From an uncultured Desulfospira sp. (GTDB taxonomy: Bacteria; Desulfobacterota; Desulfobacteria; Desulfobacterales; Desulfobacteraceae): a stretch of DNA of 64,000 nt. The position numbers and the translations under genes were made by a program. The DNA lies in the NCBI GenBank assembly GCA_963663165.1, contig OY760175.1, forward strand, positions 1,728,001-1,792,000, read 5' to 3'. The notes under the pieces were generated by a model that did not search any database, had not been told where the DNA came from, and was given only the letters and a program-made list of their open reading frames with translations. This document shows, in pieces, positions 18,541 to 36,486 of the stretch. The number at the start of each line of letters is the position of its first letter. The first letter of the stretch is position 1.

Positions 18541-21131
18541 TATCGACCTAATTTCAAATGCTCGCCTGAGGGATCCGCCGTAAACCGAATCACATCCCCT
18601 TTGGTAAACTCTCCTTTAAGCAATGCCATAGACAACGGATTTTCAATTTCCCGCTGGATCATCCGTTTCAAAGGCCTTGCACCGAATCCCGGATCATACC
18701 CGTTCTGGGCCAGCCAGTCCATGGCTGCGTCATCCAGGTTAACCTCAAGATTCCGGGATCTTAACCGCTTGTTCAGGCCGTTGATCTGGATTTTGGCAAT
18801 ATCCTGAATATCTTCCCGGCTCAGGGCATGGAAGGTAATGATCTCGTCAATCCGGTTAAGAAACTCGGGTCTGAACGCCTGTTTTAATGCCTGAGTGACC
18901 CCTTCCTGCCGGTCGGACTCAGACAGGGTGGCATCTTCGCCGGCCGCCTGGATAAACCGGGACCCCACATTGGAGGTCATGATGATAATGGTGTTTCTAA
19001 AATCCACGGTCCGCCCCTGTCCGTCGGTCATCCTTCCGTCGTCCAGCACCTGGAGCAGCACGTTAAACACATCGGGATGGGCCTTTTCAATCTCGTCAAA
19101 CAGGATCACCGAATAGGGCCGCCGTCTCACCGACTCGGTCAGATAACCGCCTTCATCATATCCCACATATCCGGGAGGGGCACCAATCAGCCTTGCCACC
19201 GAGTGTTTTTCCATGTACTCGGACATGTCCACCCTGACCATGGCCTGGTCGCTGTCAAACATAAATTCAGCCAAAGACTTGGCAAGCTCGGTCTTGCCCA
19301 CGCCCGTGGGTCCCATGAAGATAAAGGTCCCGATGGGCCGGTCTTCGGGCTGAAGCCCGGATCTTGCCCGTCTGACGGCATTGGATACGGCGTCAATGGC
19401 GGTCTTCTGGCCAATGACCCGTTTCTGGATATAGGATTCCATGGCCACCAGTTTTTCCTGCTCGCCCTGGAGCATCTTGGATACCGGAATCCCGGTCCAG
19501 GAAGAGACCACCTCTGCCACGTCAGCTTCTTCCACGTCCTCCCGGAGCATCTTCCGGTTTTCCTGGAGGCGGTTCAGCTCCTGCTTCTTGGCTTCAATCC
19601 GTTTTTTTAATTCTTCAATGGTGCCGTACCGGATCTGGGCCACTTTTTCAAGGTCCCCGCTGCGTTCGGCCATCTGGGCCTGGGTCTGGGCCCGGTCTAC
19701 ATCTTCCCTTAACCCGGAAATCTCCTGGATCAGGGATTTTTCATTATCCCAGTGAAGTTTTAAGGGACCCATCTCCTCCTGCATGGCCGCGATCTGCCGT
19801 TCAAGAACTTCGAGCCGTTCTTTTGAGGCGGCATCCTTTTCCTTTACCAGGGCCTGGCGCTCAATCTGGGCCTGGGTGATTTTACGCTGAATCTCGTCAA
19901 TGGCCCGGGGCATGGAGTCGATCTCAATCCGAAGCCTTGAGGCACACTCATCAATCAAGTCCACGGCCTTATCCGGCAAAAACCGGTCGGCAATGTACCG
20001 GTTGGACAGGGTGGCGGCCGCCACGATGGCCGAGTCTTTGATCCTTATGCCGTGGTGGACCTCGTATTTTTCCTTAAGTCCCCTTAAAATGGAGATGGTA
20101 TCCGCCACGGTGGGCTCCTTGGCCATGACCGGCTGGAACCGCCGTTCTAAGGCGGCATCCTTTTCAATATACTTTCGGTACTCGTCCAGGGTGGTGGCGC
20201 CCACGCATCTTAAGGTGCCTCTGGCCAGGGCCGGCTTGAGCATGTTGGAGGCATCTACGGAGCCTTCGGCGGCACCGGCGCCCACGACGGTATGAAGCTC
20301 GTCAATAAAGAGGACCACTTCCCCTTCAGCCGCTTCCACCTCCTTTAAAACCGCCTTTAACCGGTCTTCAAACTCGCCCCTGAACTTGGCACCGGCCAGC
20401 AAGGCCCCCATATCCAGGGCAATCACCCGCCTGTTTTTCAAGCTGTCGGACACATCGCCTTCCACGATTCTCTGGGCCAAGCCTTCCACAATGGCAGTTT
20501 TTCCCACCCCGGGATCACCGATGAGAACCGGGTTGTTCTTCCGTCTGCGGGACAGCACCTGGACAATCCTTCGGATTTCCTCATCCCGTCCGATCACCGG
20601 ATCCAGTTTGCCGGACCGGGCAAGGTCGGTGAGGTCTCTGCCGAATTTTTCCAGGGCCTGGTACTTTTCTTCCGGGTTCTGGTCAGTGACGGTCTGATTT
20701 CCCCGGATATCCTTTAACACGGACAAAATCGCCTCCCGGGTAACCCCGGCCCCTGACAGGATATCCCGGGTCTCCCCTTTCTGGCCGGCAAGGGAAAGGA
20801 AAATGTGTTCTAAACTGACATACTGGTCCTTCATCTTTGAGGCTTCATCAAATGCCAGGTCCAGAATTTTCTTGCCGTCCCGGGAAAGGTACAGATCCGC
20901 CCCCCCGGACACCGTGGGCTTTTTCCCAAGGCCCTCATCAACGGCCCGGTTCAGGGACGCTGTGTCCACCCCGATTTTTTTTAAGATGGAAACCGCCACC
21001 CCCTGATGATCCCCGAGCATGGCTTTAAGGAAATGAATGGGGTCAATGGTCGGATGATGGGCACCCGATGCCAGATCGTGGGCTGCTTGAACCAGTTCCT
21101 GGGACTTTACCGTGAGCTTGTCATATTTCAT
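18540..21131 (-). CDS. clpB: ATP-dependent chaperone ClpB
   Basis: 863 aa; two AAA+ modules ([16 protein letters not shown]), coiled-coil middle domain, GAPPGYVGY. Confidence 0.97.
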
Positions 21132-21333
21132 TTATTTTTCCTTTTCATTATCATTTTCAGTTTATAACAAAAAGTAATGCGATTTGGACCTTGGTCAAGC
21201 CACGCTGAAAAATAAATTTACATTATCCCAAACCAATGCCATTAACTTAAGAGTTTTCATCACTATAAATTGGAACGGCTCTTATTAACATCATGAAGTG
21301 CACATCTCCCAATGCCTGACCCTGTCCGTTACT

Positions 21334-21514
21334 CTCTGTGAAGTTTGGCGCAACCAAACCTTAAGTGTCCTCTGTGGTTTAAAAACATGAAATCCCAAAG
21401 GGATTGAAAGGTTTTTCTTGAAATTCCTGGTTTGTGAAATCAGCGGGCTTCGCCCGCATTTTCTATTCAACCACAGAGAGAATAGAGGTTTGGCTTGCGC
21501 CAAACTACACAGAG
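21334..21514. repeat. Intergenic imperfect inverted repeat (about 45-bp arms) with internal hairpin
   Basis: CTCTGTGAAGTTTGGCGCAACCAAACCT...CTCTGTGGTT vs AACCACAGAG...AGGTTTGGCTTGCGCCAAACTACACAGAG; GCGGGCTTCGCCCGC at 21443-21457. Confidence 0.7.
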
Positions 21515-21570
21515 GAAACCTACAAATAACATACTCGATGCTTAAGTTAATGACATTGTATCCCAAACAC

Positions 21571-22734
21571 CTAATTTGTCTCCCAGAAAGGCGACATCTG
21601 CCTTAACCGTTCAATAATGGGCACCATGGCCTCAACAATGTCATCCATTTCCTGGCGGGTATTGTAATGGGACAGGGAAAACCGGATGGTCCCGTGAAGG
21701 GATTTCTGGGGGACCTTCATGGCCATGAGCACATGGGAGGGATCAAGAGAGCCCGAGGTGCAGGCCGATCCGGAAGAGGCGCAGATGCCTTTCTGATCCA
21801 GGAGCATGAGAATGGACTCCCCCTCTACGGCGTCAAAGCCGATGGACAGGGTATTGGGCAGCCGGTGGTCCATATCCCCGTTCACGGAACAGGCAGGAAT
21901 GGTGTCAAGCAGCCGGTTCTGGAGACAATCCCTTAACTCCTTAACCCGGGTGTTCATTTCATCTAAATTCTCTTTGGCCAGTTGGGCGGCCTTGCCAAGG
22001 CCGATAATGGAAACCGTGTTTTCCGTTCCGCCCCGCCGGCCCTTTTCCTGGTGGCCGCCAATAAGAAATGGCGTGAACTTGAGGCCGTTTTTGATATACA
22101 GCACACCAATGCCCTTGGGGGCATGAATTTTATGCCCGGACAAGGAGAGCATGTCCACACCGGTTTTCTTCACGTCAATGGGCACCTTGCCCGTGGCCTG
22201 GACCGCGTCGGTATGAAATAAAATCCCTTTTTGAGCCGCTTCTTTAGCAATCTCGTCAATGGGGAAAATCACGCCTGTTTCGTTGTTGGCCCACATGACG
22301 GATACGATGGCGGTATTCTCAGACATGCTTGAATAGAGCAGGTCCAGGTCCAGCCGCCCCCTGCTGTCCACGGGCACCAGGGTAATCTCATACCCCCGGT
22401 TTCTTTTTAGGTGTTTACACAGGTTAAGAATGGCCGGATGCTCAACCGCTGTGGTAATGATATGCTTTTTTTCGGGGAAAGCGGCAAGGGCCGTGTTAAT
22501 GGCCGCATTATCACTCTCCGTGCCGCAGCTGGTAAACACGATCTCATCCGGGTCCGCATTGATCAGGCCGGCCACATGTTCTCTGGCCTGTTTAACCTTT
22601 TGGGCCACCTGGTCCCCGAAGGTATACATGGAAGACGGGTTCCCGTACATCTCGCCGAAATAAGGAAGCATTGTCTCAATGACCTCATCAGCGACTTTGG
22701 TGGTGGCGTTGTTATCCGTGTAAATAATAGTCAT
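21571..22734 (-). CDS. nifS: Cysteine desulfurase NifS
   Basis: DNNATT, GNPSS, FTSCGTESDN, SGHKIHAPKG (PLP Lys), SSGSACTSGSLDPSHVL. Confidence 0.95.
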   Translation of the reverse strand: MTIIYTDNNATTKVADEVIETMLPYFGEMYGNPSSMYTFGDQVAQKVKQAREHVAGLINADPDEIVFTSCGTESDNAAINTALAAFPEKKHIITTAVEHPAILNLCKHLKRNRGYEITLVPVDSRGRLDLDLLYSSMSENTAIVSVMWANNETGVIFPIDEIAKEAAQKGILFHTDAVQATGKVPIDVKKTGVDMLSLSGHKIHAPKGIGVLYIKNGLKFTPFLIGGHQEKGRRGGTENTVSIIGLGKAAQLAKENLDEMNTRVKELRDCLQNRLLDTIPACSVNGDMDHRLPNTLSIGFDAVEGESILMLLDQKGICASSGSACTSGSLDPSHVLMAMKVPQKSLHGTIRFSLSHYNTRQEMDDIVEAMVPIIERLRQMSPFWETN

Positions 22735-22750
22735 GGGTCACCTTCTCGGG

Positions 22751-23323
22751 TTATGCCAGGCCTTGAGCAGCCCGGGTGGATTCAATGATCTGTTCGATCC
22801 GGTCAATGCATTTGCCGCAGCCGCCGCCAGCCTTAAGATAGTTGGTGACATCTTCGGTGGTCTTAAGGTCGTTGTTTTTGACGGCATCCTTAATTTCAAG
22901 ATCGGTCACATCAAAACATTCACAGACCAGGTCTCCTGGTTTCTCAAGGATCTGAACGCCCCGGTAATTGGCAATGGCCTTTTTCAAGGCGGCATGGCCC
23001 ATGACCGAGCAGTGCATTTTGGCTTTGGGAAGCCCCCCTAAATAATCGGCAATATCGTCGTTGGTCACCTTGATAGCCTCATCCAGGGTCATGCCCTTGA
23101 TGATTTCCGTCAGGGCCGATGAGGACGCCACGGCACTGGCGCAGCCAAATGTCATGAAAGAGGCATTGATGATTCTTTCATTTTCATTCACCTTTAAATA
23201 TAAGGTCAGGGCATCCCCGCAATTGAGGGACCCGGTCTCTCCCACCGCATTTGCATCTCTCATGACCCCTACGTTCCTGGGGTTCAAAAAATGGTCTTTG
23301 ACCTGATCAGAGTAATTCCACAT
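22751..23323 (-). CDS. nifU: Fe-S scaffold NifU (N-terminal scaffold plus BFD-like [2Fe-2S] domain; no C-terminal Nfu domain)
   Basis: HFLNPRNVG, CGDAL, FGCASA, KMHCSVM, then VCECF...GGGCGKC; ends at 190 aa. Confidence 0.88.
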   Translation of the reverse strand: MWNYSDQVKDHFLNPRNVGVMRDANAVGETGSLNCGDALTLYLKVNENERIINASFMTFGCASAVASSSALTEIIKGMTLDEAIKVTNDDIADYLGGLPKAKMHCSVMGHAALKKAIANYRGVQILEKPGDLVCECFDVTDLEIKDAVKNNDLKTTEDVTNYLKAGGGCGKCIDRIEQIIESTRAAQGLA

Positions 23324-23614
23324 GACAGCCTCCCTTATTGATCTGTTTTACGGCCTGCCCCGGGAATCGTGTAACAGGCCTGATGATTTTGCCATGATTT
23401 AAAATACTACATGGTGGTAGATTGTCAAATAGAAACAATGGAGACCGGAAGAAGGGAAACCGCCAGACCGGAAACGGGAGACCGGATGTTACGGACCCTT
23501 TAGGCTGTCTTTTTTTCCATGGTGTAAAAAAACCCGACAAAATGCGGTGCCATTCCCTGCATTGTTTTCCATTCATTTCATTGAATTACAAGCAGTTAAA
23601 CAAAATCCCCCCCA

Positions 23615-23631
23615 TTGGTATGGTCATTGCT
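23615..23631 (+). promoter_or_regulatory. Putative sigma54 (-24/-12) promoter of the aspA-hydF-...-nif-like operon
   Basis: TTGGTATGGTCATTGCT has GG-N10-GC spacing; IHF-like TTACAAGCAGTTA lies just upstream (about 23586-23598). Confidence 0.65.
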
Positions 23632-23945
23632 CATACAGGTTTTATCAGCCGTCCGGTACAAGGATATCCCGGCCGGGCCAAGATGAACCGGCAGATTGGA
23701 CGTTTGGGGCATTAAACTTTTAAATTAGGTTGACAAGAGGCAATGACTTATCATATGACCACCGTAACGGAAAACAGCCACGAAGGCTTAAAGGTTATCC
23801 CCAGGGATAGGTTTAGGCTTTTGTGGCTGTTTTTTTTTGCGCCGTTGCCCACCCCTTGCAAAAGGGTGCCAAAAAAAGGGAAGGGCCATGGCCCGGTCTG
23901 CCCGTTTGAACTTGATGAAGCACTGTTTTTTACAGGATATCAACC

Positions 23946-25382
23946 ATGAGCAGCAACCAGACATTAATGCGCCGGGAGCGTGACACCTTAGGAGAACTCG
24001 ATGTTCCGGCCACGGCCCTTTACGGCATCCATACCATGCGGGCCATCCACAATTTCCCCTTTTCAACGGCCCGCCTTCCCGAACCGTTCATAAAGGCCAT
24101 GGGACAGGTAAAACAGGCCTGTGCCCTGACGAACCAGACCCTTGGCTATCTTGATCCAAATCCGGGCGAGGCCGTTATCACCGCCTGCAAAGAGCTTGAA
24201 AAAGGCGATCTGTCAGACCACATTCTGGTGGACCCCTTCCAGGGCGGGGCCGGCACCTCCACCAACATGAACGTTAACGAGGTCATTGCCAACCGGGCCG
24301 AACAACTCCTGGGCGGGAATCTAGGCGAATACCGGATGGTTCACCCCATTCATCACGTCAATATGCACCAGTCCACCAATGATGTGTATCCCACGGCTCT
24401 GAAGGTAGCAGCGCTTAAGCTGCTGGTGACCCTGGAAAACGAGATAGAAAAGCTGCAACAGGCCCTCCAGGAAAAGGAGGGGGAATTTCGCAGCATTGTA
24501 AAGGTGGCCAGAACCGAGCTTGTGGACGCCGTTCCCATGACCCTGGGCATGACCTTTGGGGCCTTTGCCGATGCCGCGGCCCGTGACCGCTGGCGTATTT
24601 TCAAGAGCCGGGAACGGATCAAACGGGTCAATCTTGGGGGAACCGCCATTGGTACGGGGCTGGGCGCGCCCAGGGACTATGTGCTGAAGGTGACTGAAAC
24701 CCTGCGGAATATCACCGCTTTACCGGTATCCCGTGCTGAAAATCTCATCGACGCCACCCAGAATATGGACCCTTTGGTAGAAGTTTCGGGCATGCTCAAG
24801 GCCTATGCGGCCAATCTGCTCAAACTGTCCTCGGATTTAAGGCTGCTGTCCAGCGGGCCTGAAACCGGCATCGGGGAGATCATTCTTGACCCCTTGCAGG
24901 CGGGATCTTCCATTATGGCCGGCAAGATCAATCCGGTCATGCCCGAAGCCGTGACCCAGGTGGCGATCAAGGTGATGGGCAACGACCAGACCATCGCCTT
25001 TGCCGCCGGCATGGGCCAGCTTGAACTCAATCACCTCCTGCCGCTGTTAACCCACACTTTTTTAGAATCACTGATGCTGCTGATCAGCGCCACAAAAGGG
25101 CTTTCCACACACTGTATCCCTAAAATCCAAGCCAACCCAAAACAATGTCTGGCCCATTTAGAACGAAGCCATGCGCTGGCCACGGTCCTGGTCCCGGCAC
25201 TGGGATATGCCCGGGTGGAGGAGATCGTCAACGCCGCAAGGGCATCGGGCAGATCCATAAAAGAGGAGATCATCCATCAGCATCTGGCATCACGGGAAAT
25301 TGTCGATACGCTGCTGTCGCCCAAACGGCTGTGTAAACTCGGGTTTACGCCAAATGAATTTGACGGGGTGAACCGGCCATGA
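23946..25382 (+). CDS. aspA: Aspartate ammonia-lyase family protein (hydrogenase-maturation-cluster type)
   Basis: QGGAGTSTNMNVNEVIAN, QSTNDVYPT, GSSIMAGKINPV. Confidence 0.9.
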   Translation: MSSNQTLMRRERDTLGELDVPATALYGIHTMRAIHNFPFSTARLPEPFIKAMGQVKQACALTNQTLGYLDPNPGEAVITACKELEKGDLSDHILVDPFQGGAGTSTNMNVNEVIANRAEQLLGGNLGEYRMVHPIHHVNMHQSTNDVYPTALKVAALKLLVTLENEIEKLQQALQEKEGEFRSIVKVARTELVDAVPMTLGMTFGAFADAAARDRWRIFKSRERIKRVNLGGTAIGTGLGAPRDYVLKVTETLRNITALPVSRAENLIDATQNMDPLVEVSGMLKAYAANLLKLSSDLRLLSSGPETGIGEIILDPLQAGSSIMAGKINPVMPEAVTQVAIKVMGNDQTIAFAAGMGQLELNHLLPLLTHTFLESLMLLISATKGLSTHCIPKIQANPKQCLAHLERSHALATVLVPALGYARVEEIVNAARASGRSIKEEIIHQHLASREIVDTLLSPKRLCKLGFTPNEFDGVNRP

Positions 25383-25430
25383 CCCCTGTGGCAGGACTTA
25401 TAAAAACACCGGCTGAAAGGAGAAATGCTT

Positions 25431-26636
25431 ATGTCCAGTAAGGCCCCCCGGGGTGTACGCCTTGTTATTGCACTGGTGGGCCGGCGCAATGCCGGAAAAT
25501 CATCCCTTGTCAACGCCATTGCCGGGCAGGAGATTGCCATCGTTTCCGATCACCCGGGCACGACCACGGACCCGGTGGCCAAGCCCTACGAACTGCTGCC
25601 CTTAGGGCCTGTCACCTTTTATGATACGGCAGGCCTGGATGACGAAGGGGAACTTGGAGACCTGCGGGTCAGGGCCACCCGGAAAATCCTCTGGCGGTCG
25701 GATGTGGCCGTGGTGGTCATTTCAGAGCAAGGCATCACCCATTATGAAAAAAAGATCGTTGATGAAATCCGTGATCTGGACATTCCCTTCCTCATGGTCT
25801 TTAACAAGAGCGATCTGGCCAGGCCTTCAGACCCGGATCTTGCCTTTTGCAGGGAAAACAGCCTGCCTTATCTGATCATCAGTGCAAAAGACAATGTGAA
25901 TATTACGGCAGTAAAAGAGGCAATTATCGACATTGCCCCGCCGGAAATAAAGCGGGAGCCTTTGCTGGCCGGCGACCTCATCAATGAGGGCGACTGGGTG
26001 GTCTGTGTGGTTCCCATTGATCTGGCAGCCCCCAAAGGCAGGCTCATCCTGCCCCAGGTTCAGGTTCTTCGTGAAATCCTGGACTGTGATGCCTTGGGGC
26101 TCATGGTCAAGGAAAAAGAAATTGATGCGGCCCTTTCCGGCCTGCATCGAAAACCGGCCCTGGTGATTGCCGATTCCCAGGTGGTGATGAGCGTGGCCGG
26201 GGACGTGCCCGAAGATATCCCCTTAACCACTTTTTCCATTCTGTTTGCCCGGTACAAGGGGGACATCACAAAGCTTACGGCCGGTGCGGCCGCCATAGAC
26301 GATCTTAAGGACGGGGACCGGGTCCTTATTGCCGAGGCCTGTTCCCACCATCCAGTGGCCGACGACATCGGCCGGGTCAAGATTCCCCGCTGGATCACCC
26401 AGTACACGGGCAGGGATTTGAACTTTGATGTCTATTCCGGCCACGATTTTCCTGAACATCTGGAAAAGTACCGGCTGGCCGTTCATTGCGGGGGATGCAT
26501 GATCAACCGCGTTGAAATGCTGCGCAGAATCAAGGAGTGCCGCCGCCGAGGGGTGGCCATTACCAACTTTGGCCTGGCCATCTCAAAGGTCCAGGGGGTG
26601 CTGGACAGGGTCATAAAGCCCTTTGGAGGGATATAA
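25431..26636 (+). CDS. hydF: [FeFe]-hydrogenase maturation GTPase HydF
   Basis: GRRNAGKSS, GTTTDPV, DTAG, NKSD, APKGRLILPQ, CSHH...HCGGC cluster motif. Confidence 0.95.
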   Translation: MSSKAPRGVRLVIALVGRRNAGKSSLVNAIAGQEIAIVSDHPGTTTDPVAKPYELLPLGPVTFYDTAGLDDEGELGDLRVRATRKILWRSDVAVVVISEQGITHYEKKIVDEIRDLDIPFLMVFNKSDLARPSDPDLAFCRENSLPYLIISAKDNVNITAVKEAIIDIAPPEIKREPLLAGDLINEGDWVVCVVPIDLAAPKGRLILPQVQVLREILDCDALGLMVKEKEIDAALSGLHRKPALVIADSQVVMSVAGDVPEDIPLTTFSILFARYKGDITKLTAGAAAIDDLKDGDRVLIAEACSHHPVADDIGRVKIPRWITQYTGRDLNFDVYSGHDFPEHLEKYRLAVHCGGCMINRVEMLRRIKECRRRGVAITNFGLAISKVQGVLDRVIKPFGGI

Positions 26637-28309
26637 TGCACCTTCAGGAAAACGGCATTACCTTCGCAGCCCCCCCCTTGAACCGGCTGCCGTCGGTTCA
26701 CAGGAAAATTTTCTGTCCGGGAAACACCTTGATTGTCTGCGTGCAGCTGGCAGACGGGCGGGTGGAAGATGCCTGGAGTACCGGCCGGATGATGCGCAGC
26801 ATGAACCTTTTGCTGCAGGTTATTTCAGATGACCCCGGCCGGCCCTGTTTTGTCCGGCGCGCCCATTGCCTGTGCAACGACGGACATGCCCTGGCTGCGG
26901 TTCGCGCATTAGAGGACCTGGCCGGGATAGCGCCGCCCCGCAGCGCGCTTCTGGTGCGCAGCCTGGTTCAGGCCCTTCGATGTATCCAGGAGCACCTGCT
27001 TCACTTTTATCAATTTCACCTGTCCAACTGGGTCTGTTTAGGGCCGGCCCTGGGGGCTGATCCCGGTAAAACCGCCCGGCTGGCAGATCCATTGAACCGG
27101 GGACCTGATTATTTCAGGCAGGTCCAGGAGCGGTTGCGGCCCCTGGCTGAAAATAAAGGGATCAATGGATTTAATGACCGTTTCTGTGATCATCCGGATT
27201 ACCGTGGAGCCGACGAATTCCATCTGCTGGTTCACAGCCACAGCCTGGAATCCCTTCAAATACAAAGTCTTCTGAACAAGGCCCTGGGGCTGCTTGGCTG
27301 TAAAAACGGCCGGCATCCGGCCTATCAGACAGGCGGGCTGTCCCCGGACATGAACCTTGGACAGGCCGTGCTGCAGCAGCTGCACGGCCTGGTTCGCCAC
27401 TGCCGGGATTTTATTAACACCTCTTTTCTTACCGATCTTGAACAGATGGCCAGGGCCTACCCCCATTGGAAGGACCTGGCCATTGGCAGCACGTTTCTTT
27501 GCCTGGGCGATTTTGCCCGACCCCATGACAGGGGCCTGCTGTTTCCCAACGGCATTACCCGGACGGCAGGCAAAAATCAAATCGTTGATCCGGCCCGGCC
27601 CGATCGGGTCACGGAAGAACACACCCCTAAATGGAAGGACCTGGACACAGAACGGTACCGGCTCAACTTCGGCAGACACGGCCCGGTATTTTTCTGGAAC
27701 AAAGGAAATTTGCCTTGGATTTTTGCTCCCCGCCACGGCAAAGATGCCTGTGAGGCGGGATCCCTTGCCCGGGTGATGGGGGCCTTTACCCAGGGCCGGC
27801 AGGAAGTGTGTAAAGCCGTAAATAACAGCCTGAAGGCCTCCGGCCTTTTGCCGGGGGATATGAACTGTGCACTGGGGAGGCTGTTGTCCCGGGGCATTGA
27901 ATCTTCGGTTCTTTCAAAGGCCGCTTTGGACTGGCTGGATGAACTCAAGACTGAACCGGTCGGCAAACGGGCATTGATGAACCAGAACTTTCGTCTGCCC
28001 CGTACCGGTGTGGGAACCGGAAAGGTGGAAGTGCCAAGGGGATCTTTGATCCATACCATCCAAATGGACAAACACAGAATCATCCGCCATGACTGCCTTA
28101 TCCCGTCCATGTGGAATTTTTCCGTCCGGGATTCAAAGGGCCGGCGCGGCCCCCTGGAACAGGCGCTGCTGGGGACACCGGTGAGAAACCCTGATCATCC
28201 CCTGGAACTTTTACGCATTGTCCACGCCTTTGACCCCTGCAACCCCTGCCATGTGGTGGTCCAGGATGCGGACACCGGAAGGGTCACCCTGTCAGGCCCC
28301 GGGACGTGA
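26636..28309 (+). CDS. Degenerate [NiFe]-hydrogenase large-subunit homolog (557 aa)
   Basis: TAATG overlap with hydF; HLLHFYQFHLSNWV, EAGSLAR, EVPRGSLIH, IPSMWN, GPLEQALLGTP, RIVHAFDPCNPC; L1 motif altered to RAHCLCNDGH. Confidence 0.85.
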   Translation: MHLQENGITFAAPPLNRLPSVHRKIFCPGNTLIVCVQLADGRVEDAWSTGRMMRSMNLLLQVISDDPGRPCFVRRAHCLCNDGHALAAVRALEDLAGIAPPRSALLVRSLVQALRCIQEHLLHFYQFHLSNWVCLGPALGADPGKTARLADPLNRGPDYFRQVQERLRPLAENKGINGFNDRFCDHPDYRGADEFHLLVHSHSLESLQIQSLLNKALGLLGCKNGRHPAYQTGGLSPDMNLGQAVLQQLHGLVRHCRDFINTSFLTDLEQMARAYPHWKDLAIGSTFLCLGDFARPHDRGLLFPNGITRTAGKNQIVDPARPDRVTEEHTPKWKDLDTERYRLNFGRHGPVFFWNKGNLPWIFAPRHGKDACEAGSLARVMGAFTQGRQEVCKAVNNSLKASGLLPGDMNCALGRLLSRGIESSVLSKAALDWLDELKTEPVGKRALMNQNFRLPRTGVGTGKVEVPRGSLIHTIQMDKHRIIRHDCLIPSMWNFSVRDSKGRRGPLEQALLGTPVRNPDHPLELLRIVHAFDPCNPCHVVVQDADTGRVTLSGPGT

Positions 28310-28340
28310 CAAGAAACCGGAAAAAAAGATAAAAGAAGCT

Positions 28341-29351
28341 ATGAACCGGAACACCATATTAGATGCACTTAAAGACCAAACCGGACAAACCGGCCTGTTT
28401 GCGGCAGCCGATCGGGTGCGCAAAGAAAACCTTGGCGACACCGCCCAGCTGCGCGGCGTGGTCCATTTCTCAAATTACTGCCGGTGTAATGACCTTTATT
28501 GCGGCCTGCTTAAAAACAACACCCAATGCCGGCGGTTTCGCATGAGTGAGGATAAGATTGTCGACACGGCCCTGGCCATTGCCCGGGCCGGGTTAAAAAC
28601 CGTGGTGCTTCAGTCGGGTGAGGACCTTTACTACACCCGGCCCATGATCAGTTCTGTGATTGAACGAATCCTGGATAACGCCGATGTGGCCGTTACCTTA
28701 AGCTTGGGAATGCGGTCCAGAGACGACTTTAAGGCCTTTCGGGACGCCGGGGCCCAGCGGTATCTCATGAAGCACGAAACCATGAACCCCGTTCTCTATT
28801 CCAGGATGCGCCCGGGCCAGCAGCTTGCGGACCGGCTTAAAACCATCCATGAGTTGCGGGAACTCGGATACCAGGTGGGGGTGGGCAATATCGTGGGCCT
28901 GCCCGGCCAGACCCTTTCAGATCTGTGCGAGGACATCCTTTTTTTCCAGGATTTCCAGCCGGACATGATTAATATCGGCCCGTTTATTCCCCATGCCCAG
29001 ACCGTGCTTAAGGATGAACCGGCCGGGGACATGGACCTGATGCTGCGGGTGTTTGCCTTAACCCGGATGGTGACCGGCAACACCCATATTGCTGCGGCCA
29101 ATACCGTGGCCACCCTGGACCCGGAACAGGGGCAGTACCGGGCCTTGACTCAGGGCGGCGCCAATGTAATGATGCCCAATTGCAACCCGTTTCAAAAAAG
29201 CCAAAAGGATAAAATTGAATACGAGTTTCAGATAACCACCCATAAACGCTACGTTTCCGTTAACGAGGCCCGAAGCGTCCTTGCCCGGGCCAACCGGACC
29301 GTGGACAAGGGAAAGGGACACTCCCTTAAAATACGAGGAGAACAGGTTTGA
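28341..29351 (+). CDS. hydE: HydE-like radical SAM protein with non-canonical Cys motif
   Basis: LRGVVHFSNYCRCNDLYCGL, TVVLQSGED, TLSLG, RYLMKHET, VGLPGQT, GPFIPH, GANVMMPN. Confidence 0.8.
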   Translation: MNRNTILDALKDQTGQTGLFAAADRVRKENLGDTAQLRGVVHFSNYCRCNDLYCGLLKNNTQCRRFRMSEDKIVDTALAIARAGLKTVVLQSGEDLYYTRPMISSVIERILDNADVAVTLSLGMRSRDDFKAFRDAGAQRYLMKHETMNPVLYSRMRPGQQLADRLKTIHELRELGYQVGVGNIVGLPGQTLSDLCEDILFFQDFQPDMINIGPFIPHAQTVLKDEPAGDMDLMLRVFALTRMVTGNTHIAAANTVATLDPEQGQYRALTQGGANVMMPNCNPFQKSQKDKIEYEFQITTHKRYVSVNEARSVLARANRTVDKGKGHSLKIRGEQV

Positions 29352-30103
29352 TTAAGGTAGCCATATACGGTAAGGGGGGCATTGGCAAATCCACCGTGGC
29401 CTCATGCATATCCGCCGCTTTAGGGATACAGGGAACCCATGTCATGCAGATCGGCTGCGACCCCAAAACCGATTCCACCATCAATCTTCTGGGGGGAACC
29501 CCGCCGCCGCCCATCCTGCAGTATCTTCAGGAAAACGGGCGGCCCGACACCCTGGACGCCATTGCCAGACGGGGCTTCGGCAATACAATCTGCATGGAGG
29601 TAGGCGGCCCGACCCCGGGTGTGGGCTGTTTTGGCCGGGGCATGCTCACCGCTTTTGAGCTTTTGGACGACATGGGCGCCTATGATGTTTACCAGCCGGA
29701 CGTGGTGCTTTACGACATTCTGGCCGATGTGGTGTGCGGCGGCATTGCCGTGCCCATGCGCGAAGGATTTGCCGATAAGGTCTGTATTGTCACCTCAGGT
29801 GAAAAAATGGCCCTGCTGGCCGCCCAGAACATTATCCTGGCCCTGCGCAATTTTGCAGACCGCAACTATGCTGAACTCGGCGGGCTGATCCTCAACTGCC
29901 GGGATATGGAAAACGAAGCGGAACGGGTAAAGGCCTTTGCCCAGAAAATGGAAACCGCCATTTTAGGGGTGATTCCCCGGGACAGGGCCATCCACACATT
30001 TGAAGAAGAAGGCAAGACCATTGTTGAGGCAGACCGTACCCTGCCCACCTCGGCCCGGTTTTTTGAACTGGCCAAAACCATTGCCGGGTTTGGGGACCTT
30101 TAA
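29348..30103 (+). CDS. NifH-like reductase (nitrogenase-like, group IV type Fe protein)
   Basis: YGKGGIGKST, QIGCDPK, PGVGCFGRG and DVVCGG (both cluster Cys), VTSGE; TTGA overlap with hydE. Confidence 0.9.
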   Translation: MIKVAIYGKGGIGKSTVASCISAALGIQGTHVMQIGCDPKTDSTINLLGGTPPPPILQYLQENGRPDTLDAIARRGFGNTICMEVGGPTPGVGCFGRGMLTAFELLDDMGAYDVYQPDVVLYDILADVVCGGIAVPMREGFADKVCIVTSGEKMALLAAQNIILALRNFADRNYAELGGLILNCRDMENEAERVKAFAQKMETAILGVIPRDRAIHTFEEEGKTIVEADRTLPTSARFFELAKTIAGFGDL

Positions 30104-30148
30104 AACATTGCTCAAGGATTGAACAAACACGACCGTAAGGATATTTGT

Positions 30149-31447
30149 ATGGACCTGGATCATGCCCGCATCAGGGTTGAAAACCTGCGTGAGAAATCGG
30201 ATTTTCCCTTTGCCCCCCTGGAAGGGGTGGGCCCTAACCTGGCCGGCTGGGGCGTCATCGAGACCTGCCTGCTGCTGCCGGAGTCGGTGGCGGTCATGGT
30301 CGGGCCTTCGGCCTGCCTGCGCCATTCAGCCTTTATGGCCCATGCCAGGGGATTTACAGAACGGTTTTATATGCTGTGCGTGCCTGAACTTGACATGGCC
30401 ATGGGCAATCACCTGTCCGTGGTGGAAAAGGGCATCAGGGACATTGCAAAAACGCGGCAGGAAAAGGTAATTTTCCTGATTGTGGGGTGCCCGGATTATA
30501 TTCTGGGTACGGATCTTACCGGGGTCATCCGGCGCCTGGAAGCCGCCACCGGGAAAAAGATCATCCCCGGGGCCATGGCACCCATTACCATCGGGCTTAA
30601 ATCATCCCCCTTTGCCTCGGCCTATACCTCGTTTTTCGAGTTCCTTAAGGACACACCCCGGGGTCAAGATGACCGGGTCCTCAACCTTTTGGGCACATTT
30701 ATGCCCCTGTCGGATTCCGGGGAGCTTTATCAGGTTCTGGCCGCCGCCGGCATGGACACGGTACTTCAAATCCCCCTGTGCCGTGATTTAACACAATTCT
30801 CGCGCATGGCCCATGGCCGGGCCTCAGTGGTCCTGCACCCGCTGGCCAACGGCCTTTCCGGCAAAATGGAACAAGAGATGGGCATTCCGGCCTGTTTTGC
30901 GCCAACGTCCTATGGATTTTCCATTATCCGGGAACAGTATGAGAAAATCAGTGAGGCTGTGGGACAGCCCCTTGATACCGGGCCTTATGAACAGGCGGCC
31001 CGGCAGGCGGCGGCCCCCTTGCTGGAGATGCTTTACGGCAAATCGGCCGCCGTGGGATGCAGTATCAACGGCAGCCCCTTTGAGCTTTCCCTGTTTCTGG
31101 TCCAAAGCGGTGTCAATGTGGAAGCCGTTTTTGCCCGGGGCGCCATCAAGCCCTATGAATGGGACCTGATCCAGCAATTGCGTAAGGTAAAACCGGACAT
31201 CCATGTGTACAACGCATCCCATCCGGCCCTGTGCGGACACACCCAACCTTTTGACACCGTGGAACTGGCCTATGGCGTTGATGCGGGTATTTTTTGTGCC
31301 CAGGCCGCCAATGTGCCCCTGTCCCGCTACCAGGAACAAACATACGGGTTTGAAGCCGCTGTCTGGATGCTTGAACAAAGCTGCCGGGCCCTGACCCATC
31401 CGGTGGACAACTATGAGTGGATATACAAACACAACTTTCTCATATGA
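30149..31447 (+). CDS. Nitrogenase component-1-like subunit (NifD/NflD-like)
   Basis: VMVGPSACLRH, ELDMAMG, IVGCPDYILGTD, LNLLG; follows the NifH-like gene. Confidence 0.8.
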   Translation: MDLDHARIRVENLREKSDFPFAPLEGVGPNLAGWGVIETCLLLPESVAVMVGPSACLRHSAFMAHARGFTERFYMLCVPELDMAMGNHLSVVEKGIRDIAKTRQEKVIFLIVGCPDYILGTDLTGVIRRLEAATGKKIIPGAMAPITIGLKSSPFASAYTSFFEFLKDTPRGQDDRVLNLLGTFMPLSDSGELYQVLAAAGMDTVLQIPLCRDLTQFSRMAHGRASVVLHPLANGLSGKMEQEMGIPACFAPTSYGFSIIREQYEKISEAVGQPLDTGPYEQAARQAAAPLLEMLYGKSAAVGCSINGSPFELSLFLVQSGVNVEAVFARGAIKPYEWDLIQQLRKVKPDIHVYNASHPALCGHTQPFDTVELAYGVDAGIFCAQAANVPLSRYQEQTYGFEAAVWMLEQSCRALTHPVDNYEWIYKHNFLI

Positions 31448-31457
31448 GGGATCACCC

Positions 31458-32657
31458 ATGAAAGCATATCATCATCTCCTTCCCCTGGCCACGGGCTATT
31501 TCGGGGTCAGTTCCGCACTTTACAACTTTGGCGGCCTGGTGGTCATCTATGGACCTGCAGGCGGGGCCTGGCACATCAATATCGAGGATGAACCGCGCTG
31601 GTACCGGGGGCCGGCCACAGTGGTGGGGGCGGGCCTGCTGGAAATGGACGTGATCCTGGGCAATGATAACAAATTTATCACCCATATCGTTGAGACCGCC
31701 AAGGGGTTGAATTCCCCTTTTGTGGCCCTGTCAGGCACCCCCATCTCAGAGATTATCGGTACCGATCTTAAGGGATTTGTGCGGAGTGTTGAAAGCCGTA
31801 CCGGCATCCCGGTGTTCATGGTGCCCACGGCCGGTTCCGAACCCTATCCCGAGGGGGCGTCCAAGGCGCTTCTGGCCCTTTCCGACAAAATCATGGATCC
31901 GGATGCCCCTAAGCAGCCCAAAGGGGTTAACATCCTCGGGGCCATTCATCTTTCCACGGGCCGGCAGGCCCATATCGAACCGTTGCTTAACGCCATCCGG
32001 GAAGATGGATTTAAGCTTATGGGCGGGTTTTCCTGCCCCATCCCCGGGCAGGATGATCCCCTTGAAGGGATTCGCGTGGCGCCGGGTGCTGAGGTTAACG
32101 CCGTGGTGTCCACCAGCGGGCTGGCCCTGGCCGAGCGGATGTATACGGATTTTGGAATTCCCTTTGTGGCGGGCATGCCGGTCGGGCTTTCCGGACGTGA
32201 TGCCTTTCTGGCCATGCTGCACGGACAACGGCCTGAGTTTCAGCTGCCAAAACAGGAAACAACCCCTTACCGGCACGCCCTGGTTATTGGCGAACCAATC
32301 ATGGGATACGGGGTCCGGCATTGCCTGCGTTATGATTTCGGCCTGCCCCGGGTGGACGTGATCTCAGTAACCCCCAGTGAACCGCTTTTCCGGGAATCCA
32401 AAGGCCGGACCGGCATCTTGGCCGAACAGGGACCCGCAGATATGGACACGGACGACGAGCAGCAGATCACAGAATTGATGAATGACCCGGATGTGGACCT
32501 GATTGTAGCGGACCCCTTTTACCAGGCCCTGCTCACCAAAGAGGCAGCGTTCATCCCTTTACCCCATGTGGCCATGAGTGCCCGGATTCATTGGGACATG
32601 GGTTACGAATACGCCGTGGACAAGGGGTACGCGTATCTGGCCTCACGTCTGCAATGA
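31458..32657 (+). CDS. Nitrogenase component-1-like subunit (NifK/NflK-like), lacking the usual cluster Cys
   Basis: GVSSAL, LLEMDVILG, GTPISEIIGTDL, GVNILG, GIPFVAGMPVG, LIVADP. Confidence 0.75.
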   Translation: MKAYHHLLPLATGYFGVSSALYNFGGLVVIYGPAGGAWHINIEDEPRWYRGPATVVGAGLLEMDVILGNDNKFITHIVETAKGLNSPFVALSGTPISEIIGTDLKGFVRSVESRTGIPVFMVPTAGSEPYPEGASKALLALSDKIMDPDAPKQPKGVNILGAIHLSTGRQAHIEPLLNAIREDGFKLMGGFSCPIPGQDDPLEGIRVAPGAEVNAVVSTSGLALAERMYTDFGIPFVAGMPVGLSGRDAFLAMLHGQRPEFQLPKQETTPYRHALVIGEPIMGYGVRHCLRYDFGLPRVDVISVTPSEPLFRESKGRTGILAEQGPADMDTDDEQQITELMNDPDVDLIVADPFYQALLTKEAAFIPLPHVAMSARIHWDMGYEYAVDKGYAYLASRLQ

Positions 32658-32679
32658 AAATGAACTTTCCCCTCAAACA

Positions 32680-34644
32680 CTAATTTAATGTTGGCTTTTC
32701 CTGATAATTTTGTAAGCTGGCATACAAATCATCCTGGTAAGCGATACTTCCCCACAGGGAATATGCCAGGGCTTTTTTGACCGTATCCCGGGACAGCGGA
32801 GCATCGCTCAAGGTTTTGGTGTGGCGGTTATAGCGGAATGTCCGGGGCGGTTTATGGGGCTGGAAGGCCACCAGTTCATGGTTGGCACCCATCCATGCGA
32901 ATGTTTTATCCCGTTGCATAATCGCACGTAGTTTGTCCATGGGGATATCTTTTGTCATATCATGGCCGATCATGGGCGTATAGGCACTGATGCCGGCCAG
33001 TGACAGCAACGTTACCGGCAAATCAAGCTGACTGGCAAGGCGATCATCCATTCGCGGCGCAATGCCGCCGCCGGTAATAACGGCAGGAATATGGAAGTGA
33101 GTAACCGGGACCATCTGATCCCCGTAAGTCCGGGCGTCATGGTCTGCAACCACCAGAAAAATGGTGTTTTCCCAGTAATTGGACTTCCTGGCCTTTTCAA
33201 AGAACCGCCCAATGGCATAGTCCGCATATTTTACCGCATTTTCACGGGTTGAAGCTGGTTCATTAACCGGGCTGATCCGCCCTTGCGGGTATTCAAAGGG
33301 GGAATGGTTTGAGGATGTGAACACCAGGCTGAAGAAAGGCTTATGCTCAGTGGCGAACCCGGTGAACTGCTGATGGGCTTTATTAAAAAGGTCTTCATCA
33401 CTTACCCCCCAGGAACCGACATATTCCGGATTGGAAAACGTGGGGGCATCCTGAATACGGTTAAAGCCATTGCCCAGAAAAAAGTGTTTCATGTTGTCAA
33501 AGTGGCTTTCACCGCCATAGATAAACTCGGTGACATACCCTTGTTTTTTTAATACATCCGCAATGGTGAAAAAATTGGCCTGGCTTTTGCCCAGCTTAAC
33601 TGTTGAACGGGCCGGCGTTGGCGGGAATCCGGCTGTAAGCGCTTCAATCCCCCGCACAGAGCGGGTTCCCGTTGCATATAAATTGGTAAATGCCCAGCCT
33701 GAGTGAATCAGATTATCCATGTTCGGTGACAAATCTTTTCCCCCCAGGGATTTCACAAACTGTGACCCATGGCTTTCCAAAAGAAGAATGACCATATTTT
33801 TTTTCTTTGTCCCTGTGGCTTTATGATAGGCAAGGGTCGGATATTGACCGGTAGCAAACGCATCCGGATTTAAATCCATTTGAGACCGGATGGTTTTGAT
33901 CACGTCAGCCTTATCCATTTTGGGATACAGGTCCACCGCACTGGCCTCACCCCCCATCTGGGTTATGGCAAACATAACCGAGTATGATGAATTTAAAACC
34001 AGATCATTAACCAGCGGGTCGGTGGAAAATGAGACCATAGAAGGATTCATGGGCCTGTGGTCGAGGCTGTTTCTTGCGCCAAAAACGCACAATGCCGTCA
34101 ACATCACCCCAATGGCCGGACGATAAATCCATTTGACGGGGGATGACAGGTTACTGGTCCACCGGCCCGTTGCTCGCCACAAGGCCCAGACGGTTAACAG
34201 GGAGACCCCAAGCCCCACCAAAAGTTCCGGCTTATAACCGGCCCACAACATGGCCAGGACTTCCCTGGGATAGATCAGGTATTCTACAAAGATACGGCCG
34301 GGCCGAAGGTCGTATTCCTGAACATAGGAAACCGTGGCCACTTCCATATAGACCAATATCCATCCGCCAACGGTAAGCCATATTCTGAGCACGGATTTCC
34401 ATATCCGGCCGGCCCGATGAGAACCAGATATTACACAATGAAGAAGTGCCGGAAGAACCAGAAAATAACTGAGGGTGGACATATCAACCCGCAATCCCCC
34501 CAAAAAAAGCCGGGCCAGGTCTGAGGCCCCATGCAGACGGTCCCATTGCCATAAGGACAGGCAAAGCCGCGAGGCTGACAGAAAAACCAGGGCCAGTATG
34601 AAAAAATTAACTATGGGCGTTAAATAATGACGCTGTTTCATCAT
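32680..34644 (-). CDS. LTA synthase family / sulfatase-like membrane protein
   Basis: About 5 N-terminal TM helices, then VILLLES, TGTRSVRG, SSNHSPF, YADYAIG, VADHDAR; ATG 34644 with GGAGGA RBS. Confidence 0.9.
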   Translation of the reverse strand: MMKQRHYLTPIVNFFILALVFLSASRLCLSLWQWDRLHGASDLARLFLGGLRVDMSTLSYFLVLPALLHCVISGSHRAGRIWKSVLRIWLTVGGWILVYMEVATVSYVQEYDLRPGRIFVEYLIYPREVLAMLWAGYKPELLVGLGVSLLTVWALWRATGRWTSNLSSPVKWIYRPAIGVMLTALCVFGARNSLDHRPMNPSMVSFSTDPLVNDLVLNSSYSVMFAITQMGGEASAVDLYPKMDKADVIKTIRSQMDLNPDAFATGQYPTLAYHKATGTKKKNMVILLLESHGSQFVKSLGGKDLSPNMDNLIHSGWAFTNLYATGTRSVRGIEALTAGFPPTPARSTVKLGKSQANFFTIADVLKKQGYVTEFIYGGESHFDNMKHFFLGNGFNRIQDAPTFSNPEYVGSWGVSDEDLFNKAHQQFTGFATEHKPFFSLVFTSSNHSPFEYPQGRISPVNEPASTRENAVKYADYAIGRFFEKARKSNYWENTIFLVVADHDARTYGDQMVPVTHFHIPAVITGGGIAPRMDDRLASQLDLPVTLLSLAGISAYTPMIGHDMTKDIPMDKLRAIMQRDKTFAWMGANHELVAFQPHKPPRTFRYNRHTKTLSDAPLSRDTVKKALAYSLWGSIAYQDDLYASLQNYQEKPTLN

Positions 34645-34699
34645 GGGGTCACATCCTCCAGGCTCCAAATAATTCGGGCTAAAGGATATCAGAGGATAT

Positions 34700-34748
34700 A
34701 TGAAGAATTTATGAAGACGCCTCATTTTTCTCTTCACGGTTCCTTCAT
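34700..34748. promoter_or_regulatory. Two oppositely oriented 11-bp-period direct repeats (OmpR/PhoB-type box candidates)
   Basis: ATGAAG-N5-ATGAAG (34700-34716; CTTCAT-N5-CTTCAT on the minus strand) and CTTCAC-N5-CTTCAT (34732-34748). Confidence 0.5.
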
Positions 34749-34800
34749 AGTGGTGGTGCTATCGTCCCTGAAACAAACCTAAAAAATTTTGGAGACCATC

Positions 34801-36486
34801 ATGAAGACAACCATGGACAGGAGACAATTTTTAAAATATACGGGTGTCAGCTTGGCCGGCCTGGGGCTGTCTTCCCTTAACCTGCCTTTTTTCCGTATGG
34901 GAAAGGCCCGTGCTGCCCTTGGCCGTGACGCCTGGTGTTTTGGCGTCATGGGCGATACCCAGTGGAAGACCGGCCTTTGGGAGACAGGGGGGCATATGTC
35001 CTGTGCCACAGGCATTATTGACGTCATCAACCAGCAGTTTATCGGGCATGGCTGCAAATTTGTGGTTCAGGTCGGGGACCTTGTGGGAGATGAATCCTAT
35101 ATGGGCAAACGGTGCCTGCCCACCCGGGCTGACCATGCCCGGGAACTTTACCATGAAGGCATCGGCTTTTTCCCGTTAAGGGGAAACCATGAATCCAGCT
35201 CAACCGCAGCCAATGAGTTTCCGGTTATTTTCCCCCAGACCCTGGGAAAAGGCCACAACCTTAACGGTGCCGCCCATTTCCAGGCATCGGATAATGAGCA
35301 GCTCAAAGGCCTGACCTATGCCTTTGACTACAATAATGTGCGCTGCGTCATGCTCGACCAGTTTGTCCGCAGGGACGGCAGCAACTACAACCCATCAGAC
35401 AAAGCCAGACAGGAGTACTCCAACAATATGGTGGATCAGGTGGACTGGACAGACAGGGTTTTATCTTCCACGCCTGACGGATACCATTCCTTTGTTTTTT
35501 CCCATAAGAATCTCATCGGCCAGAACCACAAGGACAATCTGTTCGGCGACAGCCTGACATCCAATGCCCATGCCAGAGATAAATTTCTGACCAGCCTCCA
35601 CCACAACGGCACCGGCTATTATATCAGCGGCCATGATCACATGCACCACCGCTCCCTGGTATCCACCAGCGATGGATCTGCCATGGTGCCCCAGATGATT
35701 ACCGCTTCCAACAGTTATAAATTTTATACCCCCCGAACCGGTGATGATAAGAGAGAGACCCCCCTTGGCCAGGAATTGTATACCATCGGATATTACATTG
35801 TGACCGTAGAAGGCCCCAGGGTCACCGTGGATTTTTACTCTGCCAGCCACGGCAGAAAATTCACCCGGGTCACCCGCGAAAGCCTTGATTCTATTCCATC
35901 TTCCTTTGCCTTTTTCTTAAGGGAACGGTTTGGTTACAGCCTGAACGGCCGGCAGTTTGAAATCCCCCAGGAAGGGGCTTACATTGATGTGACGGACAAT
36001 TATCGGGGCACCACGGCCAAAATCCTGGCCGGGACAAACAAGGATACCAAAACCGATTACCTGAACCGCAATCTGACCAAAACCGTAAATACCGGCTGGG
36101 CTGATTCCAATAATACGGATGATGCTGTCAGTGACATCTTTACCCTGTGGGGAATGGCAGATAACTTAAGCCTTTATTCAGGTGCTGGCCTGCTGCCGGC
36201 TTCAGACAGGGTTCAGGTTACCGATGAATACGTTCTTTCCATGTCTTACAACAGCAAGAAAACAGGGGCTTTTGAACTTTCCAACGGCAAGGTATGCATT
36301 GCCGCCAGAAATAAAGACGACCAGTGGGTCAATGCCGTGAAGCTGAACCATGGCGGCACCACAGCTTTCAAAAAAGGCCCATATAAATCCACTTATGGTC
36401 TGGGCACCTATGGCATTGACCCTGACACCAGGACCGTCTGGGCAGTGATGAATCATGAAGGAGACTTTGTGGCCAAACTGATTTAA
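34801..36486 (+). CDS. Tat-exported calcineurin-like metallophosphoesterase
   Basis: DRRQFLK twin-arginine signal; GDTQ, QVGDL, RGNHE, FSHK, SGHDH metal motifs. Confidence 0.88.
   Translation: MKTTMDRRQFLKYTGVSLAGLGLSSLNLPFFRMGKARAALGRDAWCFGVMGDTQWKTGLWETGGHMSCATGIIDVINQQFIGHGCKFVVQVGDLVGDESYMGKRCLPTRADHARELYHEGIGFFPLRGNHESSSTAANEFPVIFPQTLGKGHNLNGAAHFQASDNEQLKGLTYAFDYNNVRCVMLDQFVRRDGSNYNPSDKARQEYSNNMVDQVDWTDRVLSSTPDGYHSFVFSHKNLIGQNHKDNLFGDSLTSNAHARDKFLTSLHHNGTGYYISGHDHMHHRSLVSTSDGSAMVPQMITASNSYKFYTPRTGDDKRETPLGQELYTIGYYIVTVEGPRVTVDFYSASHGRKFTRVTRESLDSIPSSFAFFLRERFGYSLNGRQFEIPQEGAYIDVTDNYRGTTAKILAGTNKDTKTDYLNRNLTKTVNTGWADSNNTDDAVSDIFTLWGMADNLSLYSGAGLLPASDRVQVTDEYVLSMSYNSKKTGAFELSNGKVCIAARNKDDQWVNAVKLNHGGTTAFKKGPYKSTYGLGTYGIDPDTRTVWAVMNHEGDFVAKLI

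Follow-up and report, generated by a model that had tools for sequence, protein, structure and literature searches.

Why should a scaffold of [FeFe]-hydrogenase maturation, a relative of the large subunit of [NiFe]-hydrogenases and three nitrogenase-like proteins be encoded side by side? The question is raised by the genome of an uncultured Desulfospira sp., and specifically by the window analysed here (the whole stretch of 64,000 nucleotides, positions 1,728,001 to 1,792,000 of contig OY760175.1), where seven open reading frames (ORFs) of the + strand lie closely packed at 23946-32657, overlapping or separated by short gaps, according to the ORF list and its translations. Five of them, which encode a large-subunit-like protein (LSU-like), a HydE-like protein and the nitrogenase-like (NFL) proteins NflH, NflD and NflK, are the conserved unit, and the presence of this five-gene core goes with the absence of the maturase HydG among the HydF-positive genomes of two families. 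To our knowledge, HydG and HydE are regarded as indispensable for all natural [FeFe]-hydrogenases; the reading to which we incline, from comparisons of sequence, is that the cluster would provide an alternative route for the maturation of [2Fe]H, dependent on Hyp proteins, on nitrogenase-like proteins and on ATP, which would replace both HydG and HydE. The seven genes are as follows.

23946..25382, + strand: aspA, aspartate ammonia-lyase (NF008909, 604.8 bits against a cut-off of 510)
25425..26636, + strand: hydF, H-cluster scaffold GTPase (TIGR03918, 548 bits against a cut-off of 325)
26636..28309, + strand: LSU-like gene, paralog of the [NiFe]-hydrogenase large subunit (PF00374, 320 bits)
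28341..29351, + strand: gene of the HydE-like protein with CX3DX2C (TIGR03956, 265 bits against a cut-off of 254.6)
29348..30103, + strand: nflH, NifH-like ATP-dependent [4Fe-4S] reductase (PF00142, 251.6 bits)
30149..31447, + strand: nflD, NifD/NifE-like subunit (PF00148, 94.5 bits; ATG at 30149 confirmed)
31458..32657, + strand: nflK, NifK/NifN-like subunit (PF00148, 98.1 bits; alternative start at 31413)

The common orientation of the seven genes and their order from aspA to the nifK-like gene, as given in the initial annotation, are borne out by the ORFs and the profile matches, and the two overlaps that it named can be seen in the sequence: the stop of hydF overlaps the start of the LSU-like gene in TAATG at 26634-26638, and the stop of the HydE-like gene overlaps the start of nflH in TTGA at 29348-29351. 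The HydE-like ORF opens at 28218, its refined start being the ATG at 28341, and the start of nflK at ATG 31458 is preceded, 7 nt upstream, by GAGGGA. The annotation had also stated that hydG, hydA, a [NiFe] small subunit, hyp, nifB and nifEN are missing from the window, and none of them was found by Pfam among 7 + 19 ORFs of at least 150 aa, a scan that left out three giant ORFs at 41-63 kb.

Conservation of the core and distribution of HydG

The comparison rests on 14 mapped loci of two families, that is, 12 loci of the family f49, read as Desulfovibrionaceae from the source names of homologs, together with L036 and L037. The order LSU-like, HydE-like, NflH, NflD, NflK is kept in all 14, and also in five metagenome contigs, and the full seven-gene order recurs in two chromosome-level metagenome-assembled genomes (Desulfospira and Desulfobacter). 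Thus the gene combination, for which a search of conserved synteny had been suggested, extends beyond this genome, and its order is not unique. All seven genes show ratios of nonsynonymous to synonymous substitution (dN/dS) of 0.10-0.35, which indicates purifying selection. The module is rare: the LSU-like gene is found in 3 of 151 sampled Desulfobacteraceae genomes and, in a sample of 401 genomes of the phylum, in the host genome (G000) only; NflD is found in 24 of 301 sampled f49 genomes, distributed over 14 of 72 genera, and in every one of these 24 the LSU-like gene lies 2-3.5 kb from NflD.

Beside the core, genes of hydrogenases and of their maturation recur. In the window and in L036, L037, L159, L160 and L161, aspA stands directly upstream of hydF and the pair directly upstream of the core; in L156-L158, where aspA likewise adjoins hydF, the series hydA-hydB-aspA-hydF abuts the core; and L159 reads aspA-hydF-core-hydA-hydB on one strand, HydB being confirmed in 4/4 loci. 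On the other side, hypC-hypD follow nflK in 6 of the 12 f49 loci, with hypE next in 5 of those 6, and a Pfam match bears out HypC in both loci tested. Two metagenome contigs extend past nflK, both with hypD at that place, hypE coming after hypD in L092 only.

The HydF of the window is 68-72% identical to those of L156-L158 and L161, 52-55% to those of L159 and L160, and 39% to a canonical HydF of Desulfobacter, and the G+C content is 0.54-0.59 across the cluster as against 0.43-0.52 in the flanks. These identities, together with the G+C island, suggest that the module has moved between Desulfovibrionaceae and Desulfobacteraceae. The idea that the HydF of the cluster forms a special high-scoring type was rejected, as the HydF proteins of core-negative Desulfovibrionaceae score alike.

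In which genomes, then, does the core occur? It is found only in those that encode HydA. The coexistence of HydA with the absence of HydG was nonetheless rejected as a sufficient argument, given that 16 of 23 HydA-positive Desulfobacteraceae have no maturase, and HydF-positive genomes were therefore chosen as the denominator. The 24 core-positive f49 genomes without exception have HydA, 23 have HydF (the one that does not, G695, is 92% complete), and 4 have a HydG above the cut-off. HydF occurs in 141 of the 301 f49 genomes; of the 118 that are HydF-positive and core-negative, 80 were tested (completeness of at least 97, the first 80 in list order), and 74 of these have HydG. Seven genera include core-positive as well as core-negative genomes, which are kin and not independent; in these genera HydG is present in 34/34 core-negative as against 4/13 core-positive genomes. 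Finally, a second, canonical HydE lies beside hydF in all four core-positive genomes that have HydG, as against 2 of the 12 core-positive, HydG-negative genomes tested.

The host genome G000 follows the same pattern, as do G401 and G402: each has two HydA, one HydF and no HydG. G000 is a single contig of 6.74 Mb, in which the best match of the HydG profile TIGR03955, at 36.8 bits, is the HydE-like gene itself, and in which a tblastn search with a true HydG (from G499) found only that same gene, at 23% identity. Its two HydA genes lie outside the window and both carry TSCCP, MPCxxKK and ExMxCPGGCxxGGGQP, which we take to be the H-cluster motifs of HydA. An ordinary hydG situated elsewhere, which could have accounted for the hydE- and hydF-type genes of the cluster, is thus not what explains them. 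In addition, hydF is present in G000 as a single copy, that of the window; the HydE-like gene is its only HydE-type gene, also in one copy; and aspA is its sole close AspA-type gene by tblastn.

The proteins of the cluster

The assignment of HydF is secured, beyond its profile score, by the dimer and tetramer domains PF18133 and PF18128 and by the GTPase domain PF01926, and its translation carries CSHH...HCGGC. The available text of PMC11736057 states that ammonia-lyases provide the nitrogen of the dithiomethylamine (DTMA) bridge, and that HydF can mature HydA from the presumed product of HydE in the absence of HydG or HydE. AspA is accordingly proposed as an accessory to the five-gene core, supplying the ammonium for that bridge.

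The LSU-like protein fits PF00374, yet remains below every NCBIfam equivalog cut-off (for example, 248 against 600). Its family comprises 55 clusters at 39-99% identity, followed by a sharp fall to 25% with ordinary hydrogenases, among the 61 matches listed. The four metal cysteines of a [NiFe] large subunit are presumably those of RxCGxC and DPCxxC, as they also appear in the canonical rows of the alignment, and the LSU-like protein has three of the four. At the N-terminus, the motif is (Q/R)AHCLCNDGH (AHCLCNDGH in the window), where His, Asn, Ser or Ala stands in place of the first cysteine (His in the window as in the majority of members) and where the second, C80, is invariant; at the C-terminus, DPCxxC (DPCNPC in the window) keeps C535 in all members and C538 in at least 90% of them. 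The PRG arginine is kept, and RIEGH is replaced by CPGNTF. The AlphaFold2 model of the protein (predicted local distance difference test, pLDDT, 85.9) finds its best Protein Data Bank (PDB) match in the large subunit of D. gigas, with a template modelling (TM) score of 0.77-0.81, and compares to periplasmic [NiFe] large subunits in general with TM 0.77-0.82 at 26-30% identity.

The large subunit had been described as dead-looking; this description does not hold, and a dead pseudo-enzyme was rejected, because C80, C535 and C538 are kept, with only the first N-terminal cysteine replaced, and because dN/dS points to purifying selection. The gene is flanked in all 14 mapped loci by hydF (or an unrelated gene) on one side and by the HydE-like gene on the other; no small subunit was found by Pfam on the genes of the window, and none adjoins the gene in the mapped loci, no small-subunit profile having been run on the loci other than the window. 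A prediction of a complex between the LSU-like and HydE-like proteins gave a score of 0.00 in two runs, for which controls were not folded, and speaks neither for nor against such a complex. The LSU-like protein is proposed as the carrier or scaffold of an Fe-CO/CN unit.

The HydE-like protein reaches TIGR03956 only marginally, canonical HydE proteins scoring 336-346 bits. In place of the CX3CX2C of radical S-adenosylmethionine (radical-SAM) enzymes it has CX3DX2C, with C47, D51 and C54 invariant in 15/15 members of the family, as against CX3CX2C in the 3/3 canonical HydE of the same alignment. The radical-SAM [4Fe-4S] motif of HydE is therefore broken by the loss of its middle cysteine, and no conserved third cysteine was found near CX3DX2C among the 15 members.

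The translation of NflH contains the P-loop GKGGIGKS as well as CDPKTDST, GVGCFGRG and VVCGG, with both cluster cysteines present; these we assume to be the functional positions (P-loop, switch regions and [4Fe-4S] cysteines). Its PF00142 match is accompanied by scores under the NifH, CfbC and BchL equivalog cut-offs, and its nearest PDB entries are NifH (1.8e-63) and 9fmg_D (3e-61). One carrier, G696, has an nflH split by a frameshift in a run of C (L166, 6278-7020), in a genome that also has a full hydE-hydF-hydG set; the cause may be that a module made redundant is decaying, or that the homopolymer was misread in sequencing.

Across the families, NflD and NflK (65-93% identical) are much better conserved than the LSU-like protein. 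Seven cysteines are invariant in NflD, three of them in the N-terminal third (C66, C87 and C124), and NflK has C304 as its sole invariant cysteine, with none at the N-terminal positions of the P-cluster, so that the three plus three cysteines of a P-cluster on D and K are not found; the correspondence to the P-cluster positions of NifD and NifK is assumed here from the motifs and not from a structural alignment. The nearest PDB entries to NflD are 9fmg_A and 9d9u_A, at 45.8 bits, both of which we take to be methylthio-alkane reductase, and the nearest to NflK is NifE (2e-5). The cut-offs of the known NFL families are not reached (BchN 30.6 against 420, NifE 49 against 505, CfbD 23 against 268). 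For NflD a role as scaffold or catalytic subunit is proposed.

A candidate maturation route and its rivals

If the cluster serves the maturation of HydA, the route could have the following steps. First, HypE, together with a HypF encoded elsewhere, would make cyanide from carbamoyl phosphate, and HypCD would build an Fe-CN/CO unit. This unit would then be handed to the LSU-like protein, which has kept both iron-binding cysteines and lost one nickel ligand. There it would be processed by the HydE-like protein and by NflDK, the latter acting as a NifEN-like scaffold supplied with low-potential electrons by the ATPase NflH, and the product would be a reduced diiron carbonyl-cyanide precursor. Lastly, HydF would add the dithiomethylamine bridge with the ammonium of AspA and deliver the cluster to HydA. 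Such a route would dispense with HydG and, in the majority of carriers, with canonical HydE too, and we consider it, on balance, somewhat more probable than not. The annotation's suggestion of an undescribed cofactor pathway, such as a HydG-independent route to the H-cluster, finds its support in the synteny, in the absence of HydG alongside two HydA with intact H-cluster motifs, and in the complementarity of the core and HydG.

A more far-reaching version can be formulated, which we hold only tentatively and would not ourselves call probable: that in some sulfate reducers the diiron core of the H-cluster is built without radical-SAM chemistry and without tyrosine, CN and CO being derived from HypCDE, the unit residing on a nickel-free LSU-like protein, reductive coupling to Fe(I)-Fe(I) taking place on an NflH-driven NflDK, and a HydE paralog participating without the radical-SAM cysteine. 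In other words, three assembly lines would have been recombined, and the result would have moved between both families.

The components can be compared with four known systems. (i) With canonical HydE/HydF/HydG maturation the cluster shares a bona fide HydF with AspA in the operon, a protein of the HydE family and, in relatives, HydA/HydB nearby; it differs in the absence of HydG, in the CX3DX2C of the HydE-type protein and in the five extra genes of the [NiFe] and nitrogenase families. (ii) With the assembly of Fe(CN)2CO by HypCDEF it shares a large-subunit homolog with both iron-bridging cysteines and, in Desulfovibrionaceae, hypC, hypD and hypE downstream; here, however, another residue takes the place of the first nickel cysteine, a small subunit is missing, and the partners are HydF, the HydE-like protein and NflHDK. 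(iii) The layout of FeMo-co assembly by NifB/NifEN/NifH is also recognizable, in a protein of the radical-SAM family, a candidate D/K-like heterotetramer, a NifH-like ATPase and an adjoining possible recipient, with the differences that NflK lacks P-cluster cysteines, that no NifB is encoded in the cluster, that D and K reach only about 95 bits on PF00148, and that the proposed product would be an iron carbonyl-cyanide species and not an Fe-S-carbide cluster. (iv) The NFL systems (DPOR/COR, CfbCD, Mar, Isr and Group VI of Elusimicrobia), which perform non-N2 chemistry, likewise pair D/K-like subunits with a NifH-like reductase that depends on ATP, and the three cysteines on NflD with none on NflK recall DPOR; the proteins of the cluster nevertheless fall below all the NCBIfam cut-offs of these families.

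In the literature searched we found no described counterpart of the system. The functions known or proposed for NFL groups are, in the available text of PMC13474568, N2 fixation, F430, Mar, Isr, DPOR/COR and a proposed tetrapyrrole cofactor. HydE, HydF and "hydrogenase large" do not occur in the main text of this 2026 review, nor is any such link named where it treats the phylogeny of NFL systems (PMC13474568). No published description that joins these components was found in the full-text searches; the supplements of PMC11736057, with their genome-neighbourhood networks, might list such neighbours.

Several observations weigh against the maturation route. Four of the 24 carriers of the core retain HydG and HydE, so that the core and the canonical maturases do not strictly exclude each other. 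Conversely, 6 of the 80 HydF-positive f49 genomes, and G438 and G447 among the Desulfobacteraceae, have neither HydG nor the core, and because such genomes exist, the absence of HydG need not always call for the core; furthermore, the 16 HydA-positive Desulfobacteraceae mentioned above, including the complete genomes G412 and G445, lack both HydF and HydG. The genomes compared are kin and not independent, so that the support is overstated by the p-values of Fisher tests. In G000 there is one hypD-hypE pair only, at 4.12 Mb, far from the cluster. Hyp yields Fe(CN)2(CO), while the H-cluster takes more CO than CN. Finally, NflD has remote relatives (43-47% identity) in Thermodesulfobium and Lebetimonas, two taxa not represented among the 61 LSU-like matches listed. 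As to G438 and G447, their loci have hydA, then an ABC transporter and a sigma-54 regulator, then hydE-lyase-hydF, with both HydG and ThiH absent.

Among the alternative explanations, the one that best survives is that the core both produces and employs a separate cofactor. In that case the pathway would end in the LSU-like protein itself, as a new hydrogenase-like enzyme or a sensor of H2 or redox state, for whose maturation HypCDE, the HydE-like protein and an NflHDK scaffold would be needed. It would work alongside HydAB or regulate it while providing no cofactor to HydAB, and the loss of HydG would be compensated by other means. The dedicated hypCDE that adjoin the large-subunit paralog, as in ordinary [NiFe] maturation, would be well accounted for in this way, as would the retention by that paralog of three of the four metal cysteines and of the overall fold, the full HydEFG set kept in four carriers, and the HydF-positive genomes that lack HydG as well as the core. 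However, the loss of HydG and of canonical HydE (the 4/13 against 34/34 of the shared genera) would be left unexplained, a small subunit or other electron-transfer partner stands beside the LSU-like gene in 0/14 loci, and in the window that gene is translationally coupled to hydF. We consider this explanation unlikely, if one to be taken seriously.

Alternatively, NflHDK could be a reductase of small molecules, of the Mar/Isr type acting on sulfur compounds or of the tetrapyrrole type, unrelated to hydrogenase maturation and merely co-regulated with its neighbours. The nearest solved D subunit is that of 9fmg and 9d9u, taken here as methylthio-alkane reductase, and NflK resembles DPOR in having no P-cluster cysteines. 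All characterised NFL systems, in the available text of PMC13474568, are substrate reductases or nitrogenases. Against this, NflD never occurs without the LSU-like gene (24/24 genomes), the arrangement relative to the HydE-like and LSU-like genes is the same in 14/14 loci, genes of sulfur or tetrapyrrole metabolism do not recur beside the core, and the PDB match reaches just 45.8 bits, all of which makes such a reductase quite improbable.

The weakest explanation, a chance juxtaposition or a decaying transferred remnant without joint function, could appeal to the rarity of the module in Desulfobacteraceae (3/151) and Desulfovibrionaceae (24/301), to a G+C content above that of the flanks and to the nflH frameshift of G696, and yet it can be dismissed almost entirely, as a unique gene order and a dN/dS near 1, the signs by which decay was to be recognized, are contradicted by the values of 0.10-0.35 in seven genes, by the 65-93% identity of NflD and NflK across two families and by a core order kept in 14/14 loci, from 14 genera plus two more.

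If the maturation route were true, the prediction of hydrogenase capacity from genomes would change, as 20 of the 24 carriers would otherwise be scored as maturation-deficient. It would also represent the first role of nitrogenase-like proteins in the biogenesis of hydrogenases, assign a function to a clade of [NiFe] large subunits devoid of small subunits, and offer new parts for the heterologous production of H2 catalysts. The question of whether Fe-CO/CN chemistries of the Hyp and Hyd types can feed each other is thereby made testable by isotope labelling.

Surroundings of the cluster and other loci

Upstream of the cluster, and divergent from it, there are nifU-like, nifS-like and clpB genes, and downstream, convergent with it, a gene of the sulfatase family. 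The nifS-like cysteine desulfurase and the nifU-like scaffold are encoded at 21571-23323 on the - strand, divergent from aspA; the pair occupies the same place in L036, at 92-97% identity, and is absent from that place in L037. These two genes may contribute to loading the numerous Fe-S proteins that the cluster encodes.

Between the nifU-like gene and aspA, at 23730-23890, lie a TTGACA box, a long hairpin (AAACAGCCAC...GTGGCTGTTT), nine T and a second hairpin, which could be a short RNA, or a leader or attenuator ahead of aspA. A consensus scan of 23300-33000 gave 4 promoter-like and 15 terminator-like sites, not above the number in shuffled sequences, and did not list this element; Rfam returned zero matches on 21000-35000, the element included.

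G000 also contains a canonical [NiFe] large subunit, a canonical nifHDKEN cluster (5.377-5.385 Mb) and a second NFL locus. Two further genes of [NiFe] large subunits, at G000:C1:4597005-4598309 and 3148876-3150126, each have an in-frame TGA and probably encode [NiFeSe] selenocysteine enzymes. In the second NFL locus, at G000:C1:2838324-2841813, an 812-aa frame joins NifH and Oxidored_nitro domains and is followed by a second Oxidored_nitro gene; this locus differs both from the nifHDKEN cluster and from the cluster of the window.

Within the window itself, the three giant ORFs, all on the + strand (2765, 1992 and 1989 aa), occupy 41214-63003, after a 905-aa ORF with a chitobiase C-terminal domain. 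An overlap is also seen at 5768-8166, between a DruA-like (Druantia) ORF and the start of a gene whose product has a DDE-transposase-associated domain.

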